Shown one piece after another: positions 5,761-62,391 of a stretch of 64,000 nt of DNA. The position numbers and the translations under genes are program-made. The notes below the pieces were generated by a model that was not told the DNA's origin, made no database searches, and saw only the letters and a program-made list of their open reading frames with translations. How positions within the stretch are numbered: the first letter of the stretch is position 1; every line of letters begins with the position of its first letter. The DNA is from an uncultured Bacteroidota bacterium (GTDB taxonomy: Bacteria > Bacteroidota > Bacteroidia > 2-12-FULL-35-15): assembly GCA_903870175.1 (NCBI GenBank), contig CAIQBY010000166.1, forward strand, positions 1,395 to 65,394, in the 5' to 3' direction.

Positions 5761-6858
5761 ATGAGCGGCAATACTTTCGGAACAATTTTCAAATTAACCA
5801 CTTTTGGCGAATCTCACGGAGAAGCCATCGGCGGAATAATTGACGGTTGTCCTGCCGGATTAGTCATTGATTTCGATTTTATTCAACATGAATTGGAACG
5901 CAGAAAACCCGGGCAATCCAACATCGTTTCGCAACGAAAAGAAAGCGACAAAGTTCAATTTCTTTCCGGCATTCTCGACGGCAAAACCATAGGCACTCCA
6001 ATAGGTTTTATTATTAAAAACGAAAATCAAAAACCGCAGGATTACGAACATATAAAAGACATCTATCGCCCGTCTCACGCCGATTATACTTACCAGACAA
6101 AATACGGAATAAGAGATTATCGTGGCGGCGGACGGTCATCTGCCCGCGAAACAATAAGCAGAGTGGTGGCAGGAGCAATTGCAAAATTAATATTGAAACA
6201 GTCCGGAATATCAATAAATGCCTACACTTCGCAGGTTGGTGATATTAAATTATTGAAGGATTATCACGAACTCGATTTATCAATGACAGAATCAAACGCC
6301 ATCCGTTGTCCCGATAAATTAATTGCCGAAACAATGATTCAGCGCATCGAGCAGGTTCGCAAAGCAGGAGATACAATAGGCGGAATAATAAGCTGCATAA
6401 TTAAAGGAACACCTGCAGGGCTTGGCGAGCCTGTGTTTGATAAGCTTCATGCTGATTTAGGAAAAGCAATGCTGAGCATCAATGCAGTAAAAGGTTTTGA
6501 ATATGGCAGCGGTTTCGAAGGAGTAAAAATGAAAGGCAGTGAACATAATGATGCTTTTATTCCGAACACCAGTCTTGATGAAATGATGATGAGACATCAA
6601 ACCAAAACCAATAACAGCGGCGGAATTCAAGGAGGAATATCAAATGGAGAAGATATTTATTTCAGAGTAGCATTTAAACCTGTCGCTACTATTATGCAAT
6701 CTCAGGAAACAATAAATTCAAAAGGAGAACCGGCAGAAATGCAAGGCAAAGGCAGGCACGACCCTTGCGTATTGCCACGCGCAGTGCCTATTATAGAAGC
6801 TATGGCTGCACTCGTTTTAGCAGATCATTTATTAAGAAATAAAACAAATAAAATGTAA
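5761..6858 (+). CDS. aroC: Chorismate synthase
   Basis: 365 aa. N-terminal FGESHG, and conserved chorismate synthase blocks ([19 protein letters not shown]). Confidence 0.95.
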
Positions 6859-45039: not shown

Positions 45040-45116
45040 TGTCATAAATTTTATGACTTATAAATCTTAAATGTTTTTTTGTGCGGGCAACATCCTTCCA
45101 TGTTGCAATATTCTAA

Positions 45117-45220
45117 CCCGCTTTCCCCTCCAATCTTATTTGCCTTGAAAAAAGGCAAATAAGGATTTCCGGTATAATCGGGCGCAGTTGCAAGTGCATC
45201 GTTCTCCTAAAGTTTTCCAT
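45117..45220. ncRNA. Conserved ~105-nt intergenic element, copy 1 (strand unresolved). Contains hairpin TTATTTGCCTT/AAGGCAAATAA
   Basis: Near-identical to 62207..62310 outside the hairpin. The hairpin stems differ but both pair perfectly (compensatory). Confidence 0.45.
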
Positions 45221-45278
45221 ACCAGGAGAGTAGTTAAAATAGCAATTCATCCAAAACCAACAAGTTACAATTAACAAA

Positions 45279-45520
45279 ACTCCAAGTTTAGTCAGCCAAC
45301 CTCCAAGTATTGACACCAAACCTCTAAGTTTAGTCAGCCTGCCTCCAAGTATTGACACCAAATCTCCAAGTTTAGTCAGCCTGCCTCCAAGTATTGACAC
45401 CAAACCTCTAAGTTTAGTCAGCCTGCCTCCAAGTATTGACACTAAATCTCCAAGTTTAGTCAGCCTGCCTCCAAGTTTAGTTAGCCAACCTCCAAGTTTA
45501 CCAAGCAAACTTTTAAGTTC
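45279..45520. repeat. 42-bp (2 x 21-bp) tandem repeat array (~5.5 units: CTCCAAGTTTAGTCAGCCTGC + CTCCAAGTATTGACACCAAAY)
   Basis: Perfect or near-perfect copies immediately after conserved element copy 1, upstream of uvrD. The minus-strand ORF 45113-45571 is a heptad artefact of the array. Confidence 0.85.
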
Positions 45521-45615
45521 GTTCAATAGACTCACAAAAAAACTCGCCACAATCACCAACCTCCCCATCATTACTTTTCAACAACCAAATTTCCCAACAA
45601 CAATTTAATCTACCT

Positions 45616-48090
45616 TTGAGCCTCTTAAAGAGAAAACAATTGATGCATAATAATTATTTAGAAGAATTAAATCCGATACAGCGGGAAGCAGTGGAATGTA
45701 CGGAAGGTGCGGTGATGATAATAGCAGGTGCGGGTTCGGGAAAAACGCGTGTGCTGACTTACCGGATTGCTCATTTGATGAAAAAGGGGATTGACCCTTT
45801 TAATATTCTTTCGCTTACGTTTACCAATAAAGCGGCGCGTGAAATGAAGGAGCGGATAGCGAAAATAGTGGGTGAAAATGAGGCGAAGAATCTTTGGATG
45901 GGTACATTTCACTCGGTGTTTGCAAGGATTTTGAGAAGTGAGGCGGAGAAGCTTGGTTACCCAAGCAACTTTACGATATATGATACGGATGATACGAAGA
46001 GCCTTATAAAATCGATACTTAAGGAGCAGGGACTTGATGATAAAATATATAAACCGAGCATTATTCTTCATCGAATTTCTACTGCTAAAAATAATTTAAT
46101 TTCAGCTTCGGCGTATCTTAATAATCCGCAGATAATGGAGGAAGACCGGCAGGCGGTGAAGCCGAAAATGGGGATTGTGTATCAGATGTATGCCAACAGA
46201 TGTTTCAAAGCAGGGGCAATGGATTTTGATGATTTGCTTTTTAATACTAATATTTTGCTTCGCGATTTTCCGGCTGTGCTCCATAAATATCAGCATAAAT
46301 TCAAATATATTCTGGTGGATGAGTATCAGGATACTAACTTTTCGCAATATGTAATTGTGAAACAACTGGCGGCTGCTTTCCGCAATATATGCGTGGTTGG
46401 GGATGATGCTCAAAGTATTTATTCGTTCAGAGGTGCGAATATTCAGAACATTTTAAATTTTGAGAAGGATTACCCTGAATTGAATACGTTTAAATTGGAG
46501 CAGAATTATCGGTCAACCAAAAACATTGTTGGTGCTGCAAATTCTGTTATCAAGAATAATAAAGAACAACTCAAAAAAAATAGTTTTACTGCTAATCCCG
46601 AAGGAGAATTGATAAAAGTGGTGCGTACTGAAAGTGATAATTCGGAAGGGAATTATGTGGCTAATTCGATATTCGATACGAAGATGAATGCGCAGGCGCA
46701 TAACCGAGATTTTGCGATACTTTACCGCACCAATGCTCAGTCGAGAGCGATGGAAGAGGCGCTTCGGAAACAGAATATTGATTATCGGATTTATGGTGGA
46801 GTTTCTTTTTATCAACGAAAAGAAGTGAAGGATTTGCTTGCGTATTATCGGTTGACGATAAATAATAACGATGAGGAATCGTTGAAACGGATTATTAATT
46901 ATCCTGCACGAGGCATCGGCGATACTACATTGGACAGAATAATAGTGGCTGCAAACGACCACAACATAAGCCTTTGGAAAGTAATCGAAAATATTAATGA
47001 ATTTGAAATAGGATTACATGCTGGAGCAAAAACGAAAGTGGATGAATTTGCTTCGATGATAAAAAGTTTTTCCGCAATGCTTCATTATCAAAATGCGTAT
47101 GATTTGGGGCAACATATTGCTGTGCATTCAGGTATTCTTCGTGATTTATATGCTGATAAAACGCCGGAAGGTGTGAGCAGACACGAGAATATTCAGGAGC
47201 TTTTAAATGGTTTGAAAGAATTTTCGGAAAGTGAGATTGAGGTATTGAATGATATTGGGGAGGAAGAAGAAGTTGAAAGTTTAAAGTTGAAAGTTGAGGA
47301 CGATGTTCAGGAAGAAAAAAAGGAAGGATTGAAAATTGAACCGATGTTTCAGGATGAACAAAACAATGATTCGGCAGGATCAGCAACCAAAACAAAAGAG
47401 CCGACATTAAATATTTTTATGCAGGATATTGCATTGATGACGGATTCTGATAAAAAAGCGGAAACGGAAGAAGATAGAAATAAAGTTACTTTGATGACGA
47501 TACATTCGGCAAAGGGATTGGAATTCAAATATGTTTTTATTGTTGGATTGGAAGAAAATTTATTTCCTTCGCAGATGTCGCTCACTGACAGAGCGGATTT
47601 GGAAGAGGAACGAAGATTATTTTATGTGGCACTTACGAGAGCGGAAAAGCGCGCAACACTCACCTACTCTACTTCACGATATAAATGGGGAAATTTAATT
47701 TACAGTGAACCGAGCCGTTTTATTGAAGAACTGGATGAAAAATATCTTGAATTACCTTCAGAAAATAGTGGCGGAATGTTTGGTGCAGAAGATTATTCAA
47801 TCAAGCCAAAATTGAGGACAGGCAAAGCAAAAGAGACGTTTACACAACGTCCTGTTATTGGAAAAAAATTAGTCAAAGTTAATAGTGCACAAAAATCAAC
47901 TACTGATTTTGATACTGAAAGTCTTCGTAATTTGCAGGTAGGAATGAATGTGCTTCATGATAGATTTGGGAATGGCAAAGTGATTAGTATGGAGGGTGCT
48001 TTCCCGAATAATAAGGCTACTGTGTTTTTTGAAGGTGTTGGGCAAAAACAATTGCTTATTAAATTTGCTAAATTGTGGATTGTAGCATAG
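45616..48090 (+). CDS. uvrD: ATP-dependent DNA helicase UvrD/PcrA family
   Basis: 824 aa. Motif I (AGAGSGKTRVLTYRIA) and the SF1 UvrD motifs throughout. Confidence 0.95.
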   Translation: MSLLKRKQLMHNNYLEELNPIQREAVECTEGAVMIIAGAGSGKTRVLTYRIAHLMKKGIDPFNILSLTFTNKAAREMKERIAKIVGENEAKNLWMGTFHSVFARILRSEAEKLGYPSNFTIYDTDDTKSLIKSILKEQGLDDKIYKPSIILHRISTAKNNLISASAYLNNPQIMEEDRQAVKPKMGIVYQMYANRCFKAGAMDFDDLLFNTNILLRDFPAVLHKYQHKFKYILVDEYQDTNFSQYVIVKQLAAAFRNICVVGDDAQSIYSFRGANIQNILNFEKDYPELNTFKLEQNYRSTKNIVGAANSVIKNNKEQLKKNSFTANPEGELIKVVRTESDNSEGNYVANSIFDTKMNAQAHNRDFAILYRTNAQSRAMEEALRKQNIDYRIYGGVSFYQRKEVKDLLAYYRLTINNNDEESLKRIINYPARGIGDTTLDRIIVAANDHNISLWKVIENINEFEIGLHAGAKTKVDEFASMIKSFSAMLHYQNAYDLGQHIAVHSGILRDLYADKTPEGVSRHENIQELLNGLKEFSESEIEVLNDIGEEEEVESLKLKVEDDVQEEKKEGLKIEPMFQDEQNNDSAGSATKTKEPTLNIFMQDIALMTDSDKKAETEEDRNKVTLMTIHSAKGLEFKYVFIVGLEENLFPSQMSLTDRADLEEERRLFYVALTRAEKRATLTYSTSRYKWGNLIYSEPSRFIEELDEKYLELPSENSGGMFGAEDYSIKPKLRTGKAKETFTQRPVIGKKLVKVNSAQKSTTDFDTESLRNLQVGMNVLHDRFGNGKVISMEGAFPNNKATVFFEGVGQKQLLIKFAKLWIVA

Positions 48091-57570: not shown

Positions 57571-60500
57571 TTATATTTTTGGTTTTACGATTTTCACTCT
57601 ATTCATTCCGCTCCAGGTTTTATATTCATTGGTATAATATAAGTAGGCGGATGAAGCAGGAGCATCGTATTCGCCGGGCATTTCAGCTTTCAAATCCAGA
57701 TTGATTTCTTTTACTGCATTAGGTGCCATACAACGATAATATACTGCGATATTATTTCCTGAAACTTCGTAATAGTCAAACACTTTTTTCTCCTGCATTT
57801 CCTTTAATTGCCAAGGCTGAACAGTAAATCCTGCAGGTATTCCTATAATTGCCATAGTACTTGGTATGCCTTTATTTTCTCTATTGGTAAGCGTAGCAGC
57901 CATTCTTAATGTTTCACCAACATTGGCTGTTTTAGCAGATAATTTAGTAGTGAAATTTACAGCACATTCTTTTGCACTGGCAGGTAATGTTGTATTCCAG
58001 CTCACCGAAACTGAATAAGGCAAAGGCGTTTTCACTCCAATGTATTTTACTTTCAGCGTGTGTTGACCTTCTCCATTGATGTATTGTCCAATATTATCAA
58101 TTACCAACGCATCCTTTTCTCCTGCTTTATATGATTTATCAGTTACTTTTTTGCCATCAACATAAATTGCAACAGTGCCATTTTCATTTGTTTTCTTACT
58201 TGCCTTGGCATATTCTGTCAACGCTTTTAATGCAAGAATTGTTCCCTGTGTGTTACCGAATTCACCATAACCACTGCGCGAACCCACAATATATTTTACA
58301 CCACTTGCAAGTGCATTTGCATTTCTGTTTCCCGATTTGATTATTGCCAGCACAGCTAATGAAGAAGTTTCAATTGTCAACGATTGCCCGGTAGAATAAG
58401 TAATTGAATGTTCGGCACCTGTCCAGCTTCCGTTCTTTTCCTGTTTTGTCAACAGCAAATCCAACGCTTCATTTGCTTTCTCTTTTTCATTAAGATTATA
58501 TGCCGAACAGGCTACCAATCCCAATACATAAGGGTCTTTACTTTTCATTGCATAATTATACGAAGCAGCGAATTCCTTTTTCATATCCGTAAATCCTGCT
58601 TCGGATAAGGCATACACAATATACGCATCAGTTATTTCTTTTCTTGCTCTTCCAAAATTATCCAGTGCTTCTGCGCTTCTTTTAAATCCTCCATCTCCGT
58701 CTCTTCTGCTGAATAACCAGTTGGCTGTGCGTTCTACCATTTTATCATCCACTTTCTCACCTGCCCTTTTCATATCACTGAACTGCATCAAGCCGTAAGC
58801 AGTCAATGCTTCATGCCCCGGATTACTGCCAAACCATTCATATCCTCTGTCTTTGGTTTCAAATGTTATTAATCTTTTATACCCTTTATCAAGCAAATTG
58901 CCTGCGTATGAAATCGTCTTGTCATCTTTGCTGTCCGTTGCTTTCAAGTAATCAAGCACCATTGCATTAGGGTACGAACTCATTGAAGTCTGTTCAAAAC
59001 AGCCGTACGGCTCACGAAGTATTCCTTCCACACCTTTCATCAAATCGGAAACTACATTTGGATAAGCCGTAAACGAAGCTTTTAATGAGCCATTCACCAC
59101 ATTTGTCATATCAAAAGAATATTCCTTTTCAACCTCCTGTCCCGAGAACGAAGCATTCACAGGGAATCCCTTAGGTGCAATTTTTATTGATTGCGTAAAT
59201 GCATCTCCCAATCCGCACGATTTAAAACTGATTGTAAAATCTCCATAACCAATTTTATCAAGCACTTTATAATCAAGATAAATTGTTTTTGCCTTGCCAG
59301 GCATTATGGTTTGTACCGATGGAATTTCAGCCAGCGATTTTAATCCGTCAGGCGATGTTATTGTAATCACCCCTCCCAAAGGCTTATCAGTATTATTCTT
59401 TAAAGTCAACGGGATAGAAACATTATCCTCTGTAGCTACTTCCACAGGTATTTTTGTACTCATTGCAAAAGGCAATTGTGTAAATACATTTTTCTCTGTT
59501 CTTCCTATAGACCCATCAGACGCAATGCCTTCAACTGTAGTACGGAAAGACGTAATATCATCACTTGCATAAAACTCAACAGTTTTTGTTCCTGTTCTAT
59601 CCACTTCCACATTCGGATTCCAATAAATTGTATTTCTGAAATCTGTTCTGTTTTCCACTGTTTCCTGTTTATCATAAACGGGTGCGGCAAACTGTCTTGC
59701 CCTGTAATAAACAGATGCAGCCATTTGTTGTTCAGCAAGACCATTTATATTCTTTTGTTTTCCTTTTTCTGCAACTGTATCTTCCATCCTGAAACGCTCA
59801 TTACGATTATCATTTGCTTTAGCCGCAACTTCCTTCAAATTCAGATTCGCTTCCTTTGTTTCACCCTTCACTTTTGTAACATCTGCAACTGCAAAGTTCA
59901 CATTAGCTGCTAACACATCCGGCTGTCTTTCTGCTTTATCTTTTTTCCCTTCATGTTTTGCCAATGCCATTTTCATCGGACGTTTCTCCAGCTTCTTTTC
60001 ATCTGCTCTTTCTACCTCCATTGCAGGTAAATCTTCCTGATTTGCTCCTCTGGCAGCAGCCACCGGCGCATTCACCATCATCTCATCCATCTCAGGTCTT
60101 CCTTGCGCTACTTTATTCACACCTCCTCCGTAATAACCATAATTATAATAATTGGTTGGATATAAATAATAAACCTGATTATCACCATATCCATTTATCG
60201 CCTGAACCTGCGATGTATAGGCATTTTTCGACATTGTCAAATTCACAGGAGAACTTAAATCCAGTTTATTGAAAATAAATTTACCATTTTCATCTGTCTC
60301 ATAATCTGCACCTGCATTCACTTTTATCTTAGCATTGGCAAGCGGTTTCCCGGTTACAGCATCCATCACAATTCCCGAAACAATTGCTTTTTCATTTTGA
60401 TAAGCTACCTGTGGTAAATTATCACCCATCATTTTTTCCCATGTAAACCGGCGCCAGCCCGATGTCATCAACAAATAATCAAGTGCCACATCTGCCTTCT

Positions 60501-62079
60501 GTTCTTTAGTGTCAAAATAAAATGCAGGCTCTTCCACTTTATCTTTTAAATCCTGCTGCAATAAAAGTTGCGATAGTATATTTCCTGATTTATCATCCGC
60601 AAACGAAAGCAGCTGATCATTTACTACCGCCATCGAAAGGTTTGCCGGCATTGGCATTCCGCGTTCATCTTTTACAGTCAGCGTCATTTTTATTTTCTCA
60701 CGTGGCAGATATTTTTCCTTATCTGTCGCCACCGAAATACTTAATTGTTTGTCTTTATTTACAAACGCAAGTCGCTCGGCACGCGCTATTCCTTTCGAAT
60801 CAAACAAAGTGATTTGAGCAACGCCGATAGGAAAATTAGAAGTAGGAAATATAATTTTGTTTGCTCCTTTTTTCACATTCACAGCAGTCGAATAATAAAT
60901 CTTTCCTCTCACCTGAGCCACCAGCGACAGTTCTTCTGTCTCCGTAGTATTAATGTTTACGCCTATTTCGCCTGCTTTATTATTTTCAACATTCAAAACA
61001 TAACCTCTCTGGAAAGTTTCCGGCAACTTAAATGTTTCTTTTATTCCTTCCGGTTTAGTAATCCTCACCACATACTTTTCAGTAGCTTTCGGTGTAAAAT
61101 CAAATGCACCCATACCGTTATGAAAGCTGCTGAAAGAAGCTACCTGAGCACCTTTTTCGTTCTCTACTATTCCTTCCACATCCGCAGGTTTATTAAATTC
61201 ATTCATAGCTCTGAAAGCAACTTTACTTTCCAAACCACCAATTAAATCGCCTCCTTCAGGAAATAATTCAAATTTTATTTTATTTAATAATATAGGTATC
61301 GACCGCGAAACACTCTCCGTACTTCCATTATAATCAATAATCACATTCAATAATCCATCACTAGTTTTCAACTCTTTTGGCAAATTGAATTTTATATACT
61401 TAATTCCTGCTTCGTCCGTAATGTCCGATTTTGCAAGCAATTGAGCACCATCCAGATTCGCCACAAATCTTATTTTATAATCACCAAGCGGTTTATTTTC
61501 ATTCGTATTCAATTCCAGTTTCGCCACCACTTCATCGCCTGCACCAAATGCTTTACGCTCAAATTCCAGTTTCATTTTTAAGTTCGGCAACACCACATCC
61601 TGCACCTGCACATCCTTTTCAAACGCATTATTCTCCCCTTCATTTTTCATCCAGTTGGTATACGCACGCACTTTATACATCCCTCCCAGCGCCTCTTTAT
61701 CAAGCGCAAAATCTCCGGCAGCCACACCATTTTTAGCAATCAGATTTATCGATTTCTCCACCGTTCCCTTCGGATTCAAAAACTCAACATGCACTATCTC
61801 ACTCTTCGTACTCGCCTTCATCGACAGCCCATCCCGCACATAAGCACCAAACCAGATATTATCTCCCGGCTCATACATCGGCTTGTCAAACTGCACATAT
61901 ATGCGGTCTTCCGGCAACTGCTCATTATAGGTCGCCACCTTCTTTTTCAATGCACGGATAAAATCATTGTCCTGCGCCAGCTCATAATAATTTACAGGAC
62001 TGATAAACGCAACCAATGCCACCAAAGCAACACTCAATAGTGCTACAGGCAAAACTTTTTTCATTTTTAAATTTTTCAT
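57571..62079 (-). CDS. Alpha-2-macroglobulin family protein (bacterial A2M with MG domains and thioester-region motif CFEQ)
   Basis: The ORF extends to 62313, but its first 78 codons are the conserved intergenic element. The likely start is at 62079 or 62064 (MKNLKMKKVLPVALLSVALVALVAF signal peptide). ~1500 aa. Repeated MG/Ig-like domains, GCFEQ thioester-like motif, and a C-terminal receptor-binding-like domain. Confidence 0.85.
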   Translation of the reverse strand: MKNLKMKKVLPVALLSVALVALVAFISPVNYYELAQDNDFIRALKKKVATYNEQLPEDRIYVQFDKPMYEPGDNIWFGAYVRDGLSMKASTKSEIVHVEFLNPKGTVEKSINLIAKNGVAAGDFALDKEALGGMYKVRAYTNWMKNEGENNAFEKDVQVQDVVLPNLKMKLEFERKAFGAGDEVVAKLELNTNENKPLGDYKIRFVANLDGAQLLAKSDITDEAGIKYIKFNLPKELKTSDGLLNVIIDYNGSTESVSRSIPILLNKIKFELFPEGGDLIGGLESKVAFRAMNEFNKPADVEGIVENEKGAQVASFSSFHNGMGAFDFTPKATEKYVVRITKPEGIKETFKLPETFQRGYVLNVENNKAGEIGVNINTTETEELSLVAQVRGKIYYSTAVNVKKGANKIIFPTSNFPIGVAQITLFDSKGIARAERLAFVNKDKQLSISVATDKEKYLPREKIKMTLTVKDERGMPMPANLSMAVVNDQLLSFADDKSGNILSQLLLQQDLKDKVEEPAFYFDTKEQKADVALDYLLMTSGWRRFTWEKMMGDNLPQVAYQNEKAIVSGIVMDAVTGKPLANAKIKVNAGADYETDENGKFIFNKLDLSSPVNLTMSKNAYTSQVQAINGYGDNQVYYLYPTNYYNYGYYGGGVNKVAQGRPEMDEMMVNAPVAAARGANQEDLPAMEVERADEKKLEKRPMKMALAKHEGKKDKAERQPDVLAANVNFAVADVTKVKGETKEANLNLKEVAAKANDNRNERFRMEDTVAEKGKQKNINGLAEQQMAASVYYRARQFAAPVYDKQETVENRTDFRNTIYWNPNVEVDRTGTKTVEFYASDDITSFRTTVEGIASDGSIGRTEKNVFTQLPFAMSTKIPVEVATEDNVSIPLTLKNNTDKPLGGVITITSPDGLKSLAEIPSVQTIMPGKAKTIYLDYKVLDKIGYGDFTISFKSCGLGDAFTQSIKIAPKGFPVNASFSGQEVEKEYSFDMTNVVNGSLKASFTAYPNVVSDLMKGVEGILREPYGCFEQTSMSSYPNAMVLDYLKATDSKDDKTISYAGNLLDKGYKRLITFETKDRGYEWFGSNPGHEALTAYGLMQFSDMKRAGEKVDDKMVERTANWLFSRRDGDGGFKRSAEALDNFGRARKEITDAYIVYALSEAGFTDMKKEFAASYNYAMKSKDPYVLGLVACSAYNLNEKEKANEALDLLLTKQEKNGSWTGAEHSITYSTGQSLTIETSSLAVLAIIKSGNRNANALASGVKYIVGSRSGYGEFGNTQGTILALKALTEYAKASKKTNENGTVAIYVDGKKVTDKSYKAGEKDALVIDNIGQYINGEGQHTLKVKYIGVKTPLPYSVSVSWNTTLPASAKECAVNFTTKLSAKTANVGETLRMAATLTNRENKGIPSTMAIIGIPAGFTVQPWQLKEMQEKKVFDYYEVSGNNIAVYYRCMAPNAVKEINLDLKAEMPGEYDAPASSAYLYYTNEYKTWSGMNRVKIVKPKI

Positions 62080-62206
62080 TGTAATGGATTTTAAGTGAAT
62101 TATTAAATTGTTTTTATAGTGAGATGCATCCCCCTTTAAAATTCCATAAACAATTTTGAAATATTTTTTTTGGCGACCAAAGTTCCTGCCATCCATCAAG
62201 TTCGTT

Positions 62207-62310
62207 CCCGCTTTCCCCTCCAATCTTTTTATTTTTGAAGAAAAAATAAAAAGGATTTCCGGTACAATCGGGCGCAGTTGCAGCAGTATCGTCCTCCTCC
62301 AGTTTTCCAT
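62207..62310. ncRNA. Conserved ~105-nt intergenic element, copy 2. Contains hairpin CTTTTTATTTTT/AAAAATAAAAAG. Lies in 5' leader of A2M gene on minus strand
   Basis: See copy 1 at 45117..45220. Flanks are conserved (CCCGCTTTCCCCTCCAATCT ... GGATTTCCGGTAyAATCGGGCGCAGTTGCA ... ATCGTyCTCCT..AGTTTTCCAT). Confidence 0.45.
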
Positions 62311-62391
62311 CAAAGCACAAAAAAAGCCTCGTATTTCTACGAAGCTTTCTTCTTCAAACTTTTAAACTTTAAACTTTCAAACTTTGAACTA

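Follow-up and report, generated by a model that had tools for sequence, protein, structure and literature searches.

The stretch of DNA analysed here, referred to as the window throughout (64,000 nt), contains an intergenic element at 45117-45220 of which a second copy lies at 62207-62310, raising the question of whether the pair represents a regulatory RNA, a coding sequence, a small RNA gene or a dispersed repeat. The two copies, of 104 nt each, align without gaps and are identical at 85 of 104 positions (82%), bearing out the repeated element of ~105 nt reported in the preliminary description; the figure of ~90% given there for the flanks also holds, with 69/77 positions (90%) identical outside the central hairpin as against 16/27 within it. 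Base-by-base checking of complementarity confirmed that the central hairpins differ in sequence while both pair perfectly, being the exact inverted repeats TTATTTGCCTT/AAGGCAAATAA in copy 1 and CTTTTTATTTTT/AAAAATAAAAAG in copy 2, and both hairpins are present in the minimum-free-energy folds of the respective copies. The 20-nt core GGATTTCCGGTAYAATCGGG has two sites in the whole window, both within the element, and 0 matches in 100 shuffles. Weaker similarity between the copies continues for ~45 nt on the low-coordinate side, up to a T-run (an A-run in the sense of the element).

Regarding the identity of the element, comparison of the complete window with Rfam 15, using gathering thresholds, returned exactly two matches, both full length, both to RF01705 (Flavo-1; gathering score 42 bits) and on the minus strand only, with E-values of 1e-10 to 1e-14, and the minimum-free-energy folds of both copies correspond to the Rfam Flavo-1 structure. 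Both loci are almost certainly members of Flavo-1, and not of Pedo-repair, the motif named in the preliminary description. Since the matches exceed the gathering score, the element was already known, and its observation here is a rediscovery of a catalogued motif; the minus strand is settled by the covariance model and by an excess of G-U over A-C pairs (given below), contrary to the initial view that the strand could not be resolved. Neither the Rfam scan nor our own family model (R1) detected a third copy in the window, which gives a density of 2 copies per 64 kb. Flavo-1 was described from 239 representatives, nearly all of them in Flavobacteria, with covariation and a stem of variable length, and was scored as a probable RNA, with 'n' under cis-regulatory and again under switch (Weinberg et al., 2010; Genome Biol 11:R31; PMC2864571); Rfam labels it 'Gene; sRNA'. 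Few orphan entries in Rfam are as abundant. The window matches the Bacteroidota host range of the family, encoding Por_Secre_tail proteins (type IX secretion), and the nearest named homologues are from 'Bacteroidia bacterium' metagenome-assembled genomes.

The Flavo-1 core of copy 1 occupies 45110..45189 on the minus strand (RF01705 model positions 1-76, 58.5 bits, E 3.6e-10; 77.4 bits with R1) and that of copy 2 occupies 62200..62279 on the same strand (full-length RF01705, 67.7 bits, E 1.1e-12; 82.6 bits with R1). Within these cores lie the variable apical hairpins, likewise on the minus strand and both supported by reverse complementarity of the arms and by the predicted fold: at 45136..45162 an 11-bp perfect stem with a 5-nt loop, and at 62226..62252 a stem consisting of A and T only, a type that is also found in unrelated family members, including L044, L073 and L123. 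Outside the Rfam model, alignments show the 5' flank of copy 1 (45190..45224, minus strand; TGGTATGGAAAACTTTAGGAGAACGATGCACTTGCAACTGCG) to be conserved in copy 2 (62280..62314, minus strand; TTGATGGAAAACTGGAGGAGGACGATACTGCTGCAACTGCG) and in a further locus, L136, where the ORF crossing it is interrupted. The 3' flank of copy 1 (45074..45109, minus strand) ends in GCCCGCAC and an A-run in the element sense, the sub-family counterpart of the 'GCTCC + A-run' motif of the family, and that of copy 2 (62164..62199, minus strand) ends in GGTCGCC and an A8 run, again in the element sense. The element as first delimited therefore consists of the Rfam core and about 30 nt beyond it on the 5' side of the RNA, and this extension is, as judged from the alignments, a lineage-specific conserved flank. 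RNAalifold applied to six sub-family members paired the core only and detected no structure in the flanks.

The wider family was sampled with one metagenome scan, using a pattern requiring both conserved halves, which gave at least 120 loci besides the window copies; the sample consists of members matching one exact pattern and comprises 119 distinct copies, of which 117 sequences were aligned. The model R1 recovered about 15 additional copies in roughly 0.9 Mb of metagenome loci. The consensus in the RNA sense is cUAGCC-CCGAUU-GCAGU-GGAAAUCC-(variable stem-loop, 16-46 nt)-GAUU-GCAAC-GGAAAGCGG-GA. Evaluation of the 117-sequence alignment by RNAalifold and explicit pair counting showed 95.5% of cells to be paired, compared with 79.7% in shuffled alignments and 38-58% in slid controls, a covariation score of 0.373 compared with 0.101 in shuffles, and two-sided changes in 13/23 pairs. 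The inner 2-bp helix occurs across the family as GC, AU, CG, UA, GG/CC, CC/GG and CU/AG, and it contains 15 G-U or U-G pairs but only 3 A-C or C-A pairs, which identifies one strand as the folding strand.

The two arms of the element are near-identical direct repeats, with the consensus GAUU-GNA-NN-GGA-AAUC and GAUU-GNA-NN-GGA-AAGC, that nevertheless pair with each other (arm duplex 5'-GAUUGCAGUGGAAAUC / GAUUGCAACGGAAAGC), forming a pseudo-two-fold-symmetric duplex in which G.A mismatches are conserved and not corrected; to our knowledge, this arm symmetry has not been mentioned before. Template switching at the DNA level can keep palindromes perfect, and two perfect but different palindromes are consequently insufficient as proof of a functional RNA. 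The covariation claim made from the two window copies was correct in proposing a structured, covarying element, for which the alignment of 117 sequences is the stronger evidence: the short 2-bp helix covaries while the flanking G.A mismatches are conserved. The conserved G.A mismatches within the symmetric duplex are the clearest indication that the fold is read by something, and they also answer the concern about template switching. In L025, L050, L077, L092 and L052, the tip of the variable stem bears a small nested version of the arm motif (for example UUGCAGCGCAGCGGAAGAA), the motif being partly self-similar.

The same features bear on the idea that Flavo-1 is a double-stranded DNA site, with the direct repeats GATTGNANNGGAAA bound by a nucleoid or regulatory protein and the palindrome acting as a spacer. 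Near-identical direct-repeat arms with invariant blocks are what such a site would offer, but duplex DNA binding would require neither the covariation of the NN dinucleotides of the arms, nor that seen throughout the apical stem, nor the tolerance of G-U over A-C, and we regard this explanation as very unlikely.

In common with other Flavo-1 members, the window copies have the hairpin architecture, the CCGAUU...GGAAAUCC and GAUU...GGAAAGCGG blocks and the apical stem of variable length, and they are multi-copy, intergenic and present in a Bacteroidota host. Unlike typical members, they belong to a rare sub-family, together with L136, L029, L123 and L104, in which the 5' boundary is CUGCGCC and not CUAGCC and the 3' motif is CGCC(C) + A-run and not GCUCC + A-run; the inner 2-bp helix of the window copies is CC/GG, which again differs from typical members, and the conserved 5' flank of ~30 nt sets them apart from the Rfam model. 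The GCUCC + A-run follows the core at two discrete distances, 5-7 nt (48 copies) and 30-33 nt (about 50 copies). The boundary motifs were observed to co-vary between sub-families, UAGCC being associated with GCUCC + A-run and UGCGCC with UCGCC(C) + A-run; these motifs could be cleavage or target sites, or could reflect weak outer pairing. Searching genome representatives, evidently a set without the host species, with the 20-mer of the sub-family gave 3 matches, of which L003 was the sole real copy.

Regarding coding potential, the frame MENFRRT...RLEGKAG*, a putative peptide of 35 residues, is open in both window copies and is stop-free in 84/119 family cores, compared with 50 and 60 in the other frames. 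The chance that the element encodes this peptide is nonetheless negligible, given that in the L136 orthologue an in-frame TAA ends the frame after 10 codons and that an in-frame ATG is present upstream in 23/119 copies only. The length of the apical stem modulo 3 is spread 45/29/45 across the family, and this spread together with the in-frame stop in L136 shows that the element is not coding, in agreement with the original assessment of the 35-codon frame.

The genomic setting differs between the two copies. Copy 1 is directed towards the 3' end of a converging radical-SAM (hemN-like) gene, and behind it lie a tandem array and the upstream region of the divergent uvrD; without a co-oriented downstream gene, copy 1 cannot be a leader. 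All five of the other contigs from the species carry it, with a single SNP that falls in an internal loop. A relative at 85% identity lacks it, its syntenic spacer between hemN and uvrD containing 21-nt arrays only. Absence from the same spacer in a close relative implies that copies are gained or lost. No precise empty site for copy 1 was identified, the spacer of L147 being too diverged for alignment past the hemN stop codon.

The 42-bp repeat array reported after copy 1 was recovered by Tandem Repeats Finder at 45275..45500, outside Flavo-1, as a 21/42-nt array (42 = 2 x 21). In other strains this array carries deletions of 84 nt and 189 nt, always of whole 21-nt units. The spacer of the 85%-identical relative holds different 21-nt arrays (TGTTTTTCACTTCTCCCCTCA, x8.6 and x7.5), and thus a 21-nt-periodic C/T-rich array upstream of uvrD is conserved as a feature while its sequence is not. 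The 5' flank (AAACTKGGAGG) resembles the neighbouring 21-nt array unit AAACTTGGAGG; since the array varies freely between strains and the element does not, this resemblance was not taken as part of the element. An ORF of 152 aa (45113-45571, minus strand) crosses both the array and copy 1, with heptad-like LGGRLTK/LGDLVSI repeats and a hydrophobic N-terminus, and is called as a gene of 152 or 124 aa in public assemblies; it is probably spurious, although its always-in-frame length variation is curious. At the start of uvrD, 45611-45667 (plus strand) resembles the S15-Flavobacteria leader at 24.1 bits, compared with a gathering score of 46.5 and with an E-value of about 0.9, which is most likely a chance resemblance.

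Copy 2 lies about 120-128 nt upstream of the ATG of the A2M gene at 62079, on the same strand (126-128 nt when measured from the left edge of the 104-nt stretch), close to the ~130 nt reported initially. The longest A2M ORF (57571-62313, 1580 aa) includes an N-terminal extension of 78 codons which, as the preliminary description had it, is spurious, the frame of copy 2 reaching A2M by chance. Public gene calls place the A2M start at 62196 (1541 aa), directly after copy 2. Judged by sequence, translation of A2M more likely begins at the ATG at 62079 (MKNLKMKKVLPVALL...), which would give the protein a predicted signal peptide. Directly 5' of copy 2, the gene for a 306-aa protein ends in a hairpin followed by U7 (AAAGCUUCGUAGAAAUACGAGGCUUUUUUU; 62317..62348, minus strand), read from the sequence as a probable intrinsic terminator; a simple terminator scan missed it, as it has fewer than three G-C pairs by the rule of that scan or lies outside its window. 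With this probable terminator just upstream, copy 2 would be reached only by read-through.

Five other metagenome contigs from the same organism carry an identical copy 2. In L136, a 74%-identical homologue of the 306-aa protein is followed by a hairpin with a U-run and then by a Flavo-1 copy orthologous to copy 2, which shares the 5' flank of copy 2, has an almost identical apical stem and maintains the fold by compensatory changes, CCCG/CGGG to CCUG/CAGG and CC/GG to GU/AC. The gene after the L136 copy encodes an arylsulfotransferase and not A2M, and homologues of the 306-aa gene at 55% identity are without a Flavo-1 copy. Flavo-1 copies can thus be maintained by structural constraint, just as they can be gained or lost; that the copy 2 orthologue was retained at 74% protein identity, with compensatory changes, would be compatible with a locus-specific RNA function as well.

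These observations leave little room for the main interpretation offered at first, that copy 2 is a cis-acting leader or riboswitch controlling A2M. The placement of copy 2 upstream of the A2M ATG on the same strand is what such an element would show, but copy 1 faces the 3' end of a converging gene, the L136 orthologue shares the upstream gene and precedes an arylsulfotransferase, and no expression platform, i.e., no terminator or helix sequestering a start site, follows the core. The family gives the same picture: with genes called in the metagenome loci by a crude ORF heuristic, all four arrangements of flanking genes occur among the 119 distinct copies, namely (-,-) in 37, (+,+) in 26, (+,-) or convergent in 16 and (-,+) or divergent in 10, and Flavo-1 is usually nearer to the 3' end of a gene than to a start. 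The constant, co-oriented position before a coherent set of genes that marks a riboswitch is not seen in Flavo-1, and the 'n' scores of Weinberg et al. (2010; PMC2864571) for cis-regulatory and switch point the same way. A leader function for A2M is therefore highly improbable, and this part of the preliminary description is largely refuted by the mixed orientations, the differing downstream genes and the missing platform.

Regarding transcription, the Bacteroidota -7 box TAnnTTTG showed no positional enrichment on either strand around the 119 copies, a T5 run occurs within 25 nt after the core in 4/119 copies only, and a sigma-70-type promoter scan was uninformative; Flavo-1 has no promoter or terminator of its own. 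In Flavobacterium psychrophilum, 128 Flavo-1 copies were reported, most of them with very low expression in sense; they lie sense or antisense to transcribed regions or, in many cases, outside them, while some are located in the spacers of operons or in 5' UTRs that are expressed (Guérin et al., 2021; PMC9723704). Among the first 25 copies in that data set, the sense-strand signal is at background in 9, and within the same portion the antisense segment overlapping sense-silent copies can be well expressed (Guérin et al., 2021; PMC9723704). A long-read study of Leptospira lists Flavo-1 among detected unannotated transcripts.

It could be proposed from these records that Flavo-1 copies are genes for trans-acting sRNAs with their own promoter, acting by base pairing or by sequestration of a protein. 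The placing of Flavo-1 by Rfam and by Weinberg et al. (2010; PMC2864571) among probable RNAs without a cis-regulatory role, the strong covariation with a strand-specific fold, and the listing as a detected transcript in Leptospira would all be in keeping with this, but no conserved promoter box or terminator surrounds the 119 copies, copy 2 and the L136 copy start directly after the terminator of the upstream gene, and many F. psychrophilum copies in the part of the data set considered here are at background in sense while antisense is expressed (PMC9723704). For a base-pairing sRNA it would moreover be unusual to have an apical stem that is hypervariable and to exceed 100 copies in a genome, and we consider this explanation unlikely.

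A scattered distribution with gain and loss raises the alternative of a miniature transposable element, which could be a MITE mobilised by a DDE transposase or a single-strand element of the IS200/IS605 or RAYT type, in which the hairpin would be the recognition end for the transposase and TAGCC...GCTCC (TGCGCC...TCGCCC in the sub-family) the cleavage or target sites. The high copy number, the intergenic location in either orientation, the presence or absence between relatives, the strand-specific fold with a weak bias to the G-rich strand, and boundary motifs that change together between sub-families are consistent with this alternative. Set against it, no transposase gene was found beside any sampled copy; a tblastn search for IS200/Y1-type transposases in ~1 Mb around 120 copies gave spurious matches only (E >= 1), with an IS200 TnpA query, a search that distant RAYTs could escape. 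The flanks show no detectable duplication, a clean empty site was not found, the element has a single hairpin and not two distinct ends, and BLAST with the family consensus found nothing similar on plasmids or phages. A looser pattern applied to viral contigs gave 6 matches, all by chance and without the 3' half. The 5' and 3' flanks of one copy are no more alike than the flanks of different copies, and the T-run and A-run ends of the sub-family give a hint of weak, low-complexity inverted ends only. Taken as a whole this explanation is rather unlikely, while a transposon-like origin of Flavo-1 is plausible. An inverted pair of copies was observed in L092, at 5927-6008 (minus strand) and 6484-6554 (plus strand), around a 69-aa ORF without resemblance to a transposase, between the convergent secDF and lgt.

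The bias to the G-rich strand was estimated from 117 metagenome loci, where the element-sense strand has a G-over-C excess of +0.022 with the coding-strand effect cancelled (bootstrap 95% CI 0.011-0.034); at third codon positions, the element-sense strand has the G excess in 69% of 65 loci (p = 0.003). Both window copies lie on the minus strand, which is also the strand richer in G, in agreement with this trend. Three independent small checks failed to reproduce the orientation bias, a further point against the transposable-element explanation: same-locus pairs were co-oriented in 9 cases and opposed in 7, tRNA genes were co-oriented in 1/4 loci, and the first 560 kb of F. psychrophilum, the part of the source used, has 14 '+' and 11 '-' copies (PMC9723704). 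Replication-strand polarity of Flavo-1 is accordingly a weak lead only.

Thus, the secondary suggestion of the preliminary description, a REP/MITE-like dispersed element, fits best with the mixed gene context, the gain and loss of copies and the lack of transcription signals of their own. Each copy is an imperfect long hairpin of ~76 nt, with near-direct-repeat arms and a hypervariable, well-paired apical stem, and in this lineage the hairpin is set in a conserved unit of ~150-165 nt comprising 5' flank, core and a 3' flank ending in CGCC + A-run. Flavo-1 is probably a dispersed repeat of this REP-like, intergenic kind, and neither a leader or gene-specific regulator nor a dedicated small-RNA gene. 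It would be transcribed only passively, in either orientation, and the conserved property would be that one particular strand can fold. The symmetric purine loops may be read by a sequence-specific, likely dimeric, putative protein, which could act on single-stranded DNA during replication or propagation of the element, or on RNA arising from sense read-through; such recognition of a single-stranded hairpin by a protein is put forward tentatively, as somewhat less than an even prospect. Copies would be gained and lost over species-to-genus distances, and any effect on neighbouring genes would probably be incidental or local. As a whole, the explanation of Flavo-1 as a REP-like hairpin repeat recognised by a protein is the one that we moderately favour.

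The range of options is narrowed towards a protein-recognised REP-like repeat by the mixed gene context, the lack of own transcription signals, the symmetric arms, a conserved unit larger than the Rfam model, and gain and loss between relatives. The value of the analysis lies in corrections to annotation and in a few new descriptive points about the Flavo-1 family. Regarding annotation, both loci should be assigned to Flavo-1 on the minus strand, the 78-codon extension of A2M should be dropped, and the 152-aa ORF across copy 1 should be marked as doubtful. A more specific and quite speculative proposal, to which we would give only limited credence, is that Flavo-1 is the Bacteroidota counterpart of REP, its two symmetric G.A-rich loops docking a putative dimeric protein on single-stranded DNA of the lagging-strand template. 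If true, this would explain the weak bias to the G-rich strand, the sense silence of many copies, the gain and loss between relatives, and the fact that the 5' boundary motif is matched to the 3' one in a unit of ~100-165 nt that exceeds the Rfam model.

Comparison with known systems shows partial likenesses to several classes of element. As in integron attC sites, which are recognised as single-stranded DNA, Flavo-1 has conserved outer boxes, a central stem variable in sequence and length, and a strand-specific fold; unlike in attC, no GTTRRRY/RYYYAAC pair (R''/L''/L'/R' boxes) is visible on inspection of the consensus, and copies are scattered in both orientations and not arranged as cassette arrays. 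Flavo-1 resembles ERIC, Correia and RUP-type MITEs in being an intergenic repeat of roughly 100-160 nt with a long imperfect hairpin, co-transcribed with neighbouring genes in either orientation, but differs from them in that no terminal inverted repeats or target-site duplications can be defined and in that conservation is concentrated in internal loops and not at the ends. Regarding the REP and BIME elements of Proteobacteria, the Flavo-1 core of 76 nt is longer than the REP palindrome of 20-40 nt, its consensus is without the GTAG/CTAC head, and its hypervariable tip and internal loops with conserved G.A are further differences; inspection of the surroundings of the sampled copies revealed no RAYT-like gene, and, unlike the inverted REP pairs of REPINs, Flavo-1 copies are mostly unpaired, with occasional pairs such as that in L092. 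Like REP and BIME, however, Flavo-1 is a short, high-copy, extragenic imperfect palindrome, often located just after the 3' ends of genes in either orientation, whose structure is maintained by compensatory change, and recognition is believed to require the folded single strand in REP and BIME, as is proposed here for Flavo-1.
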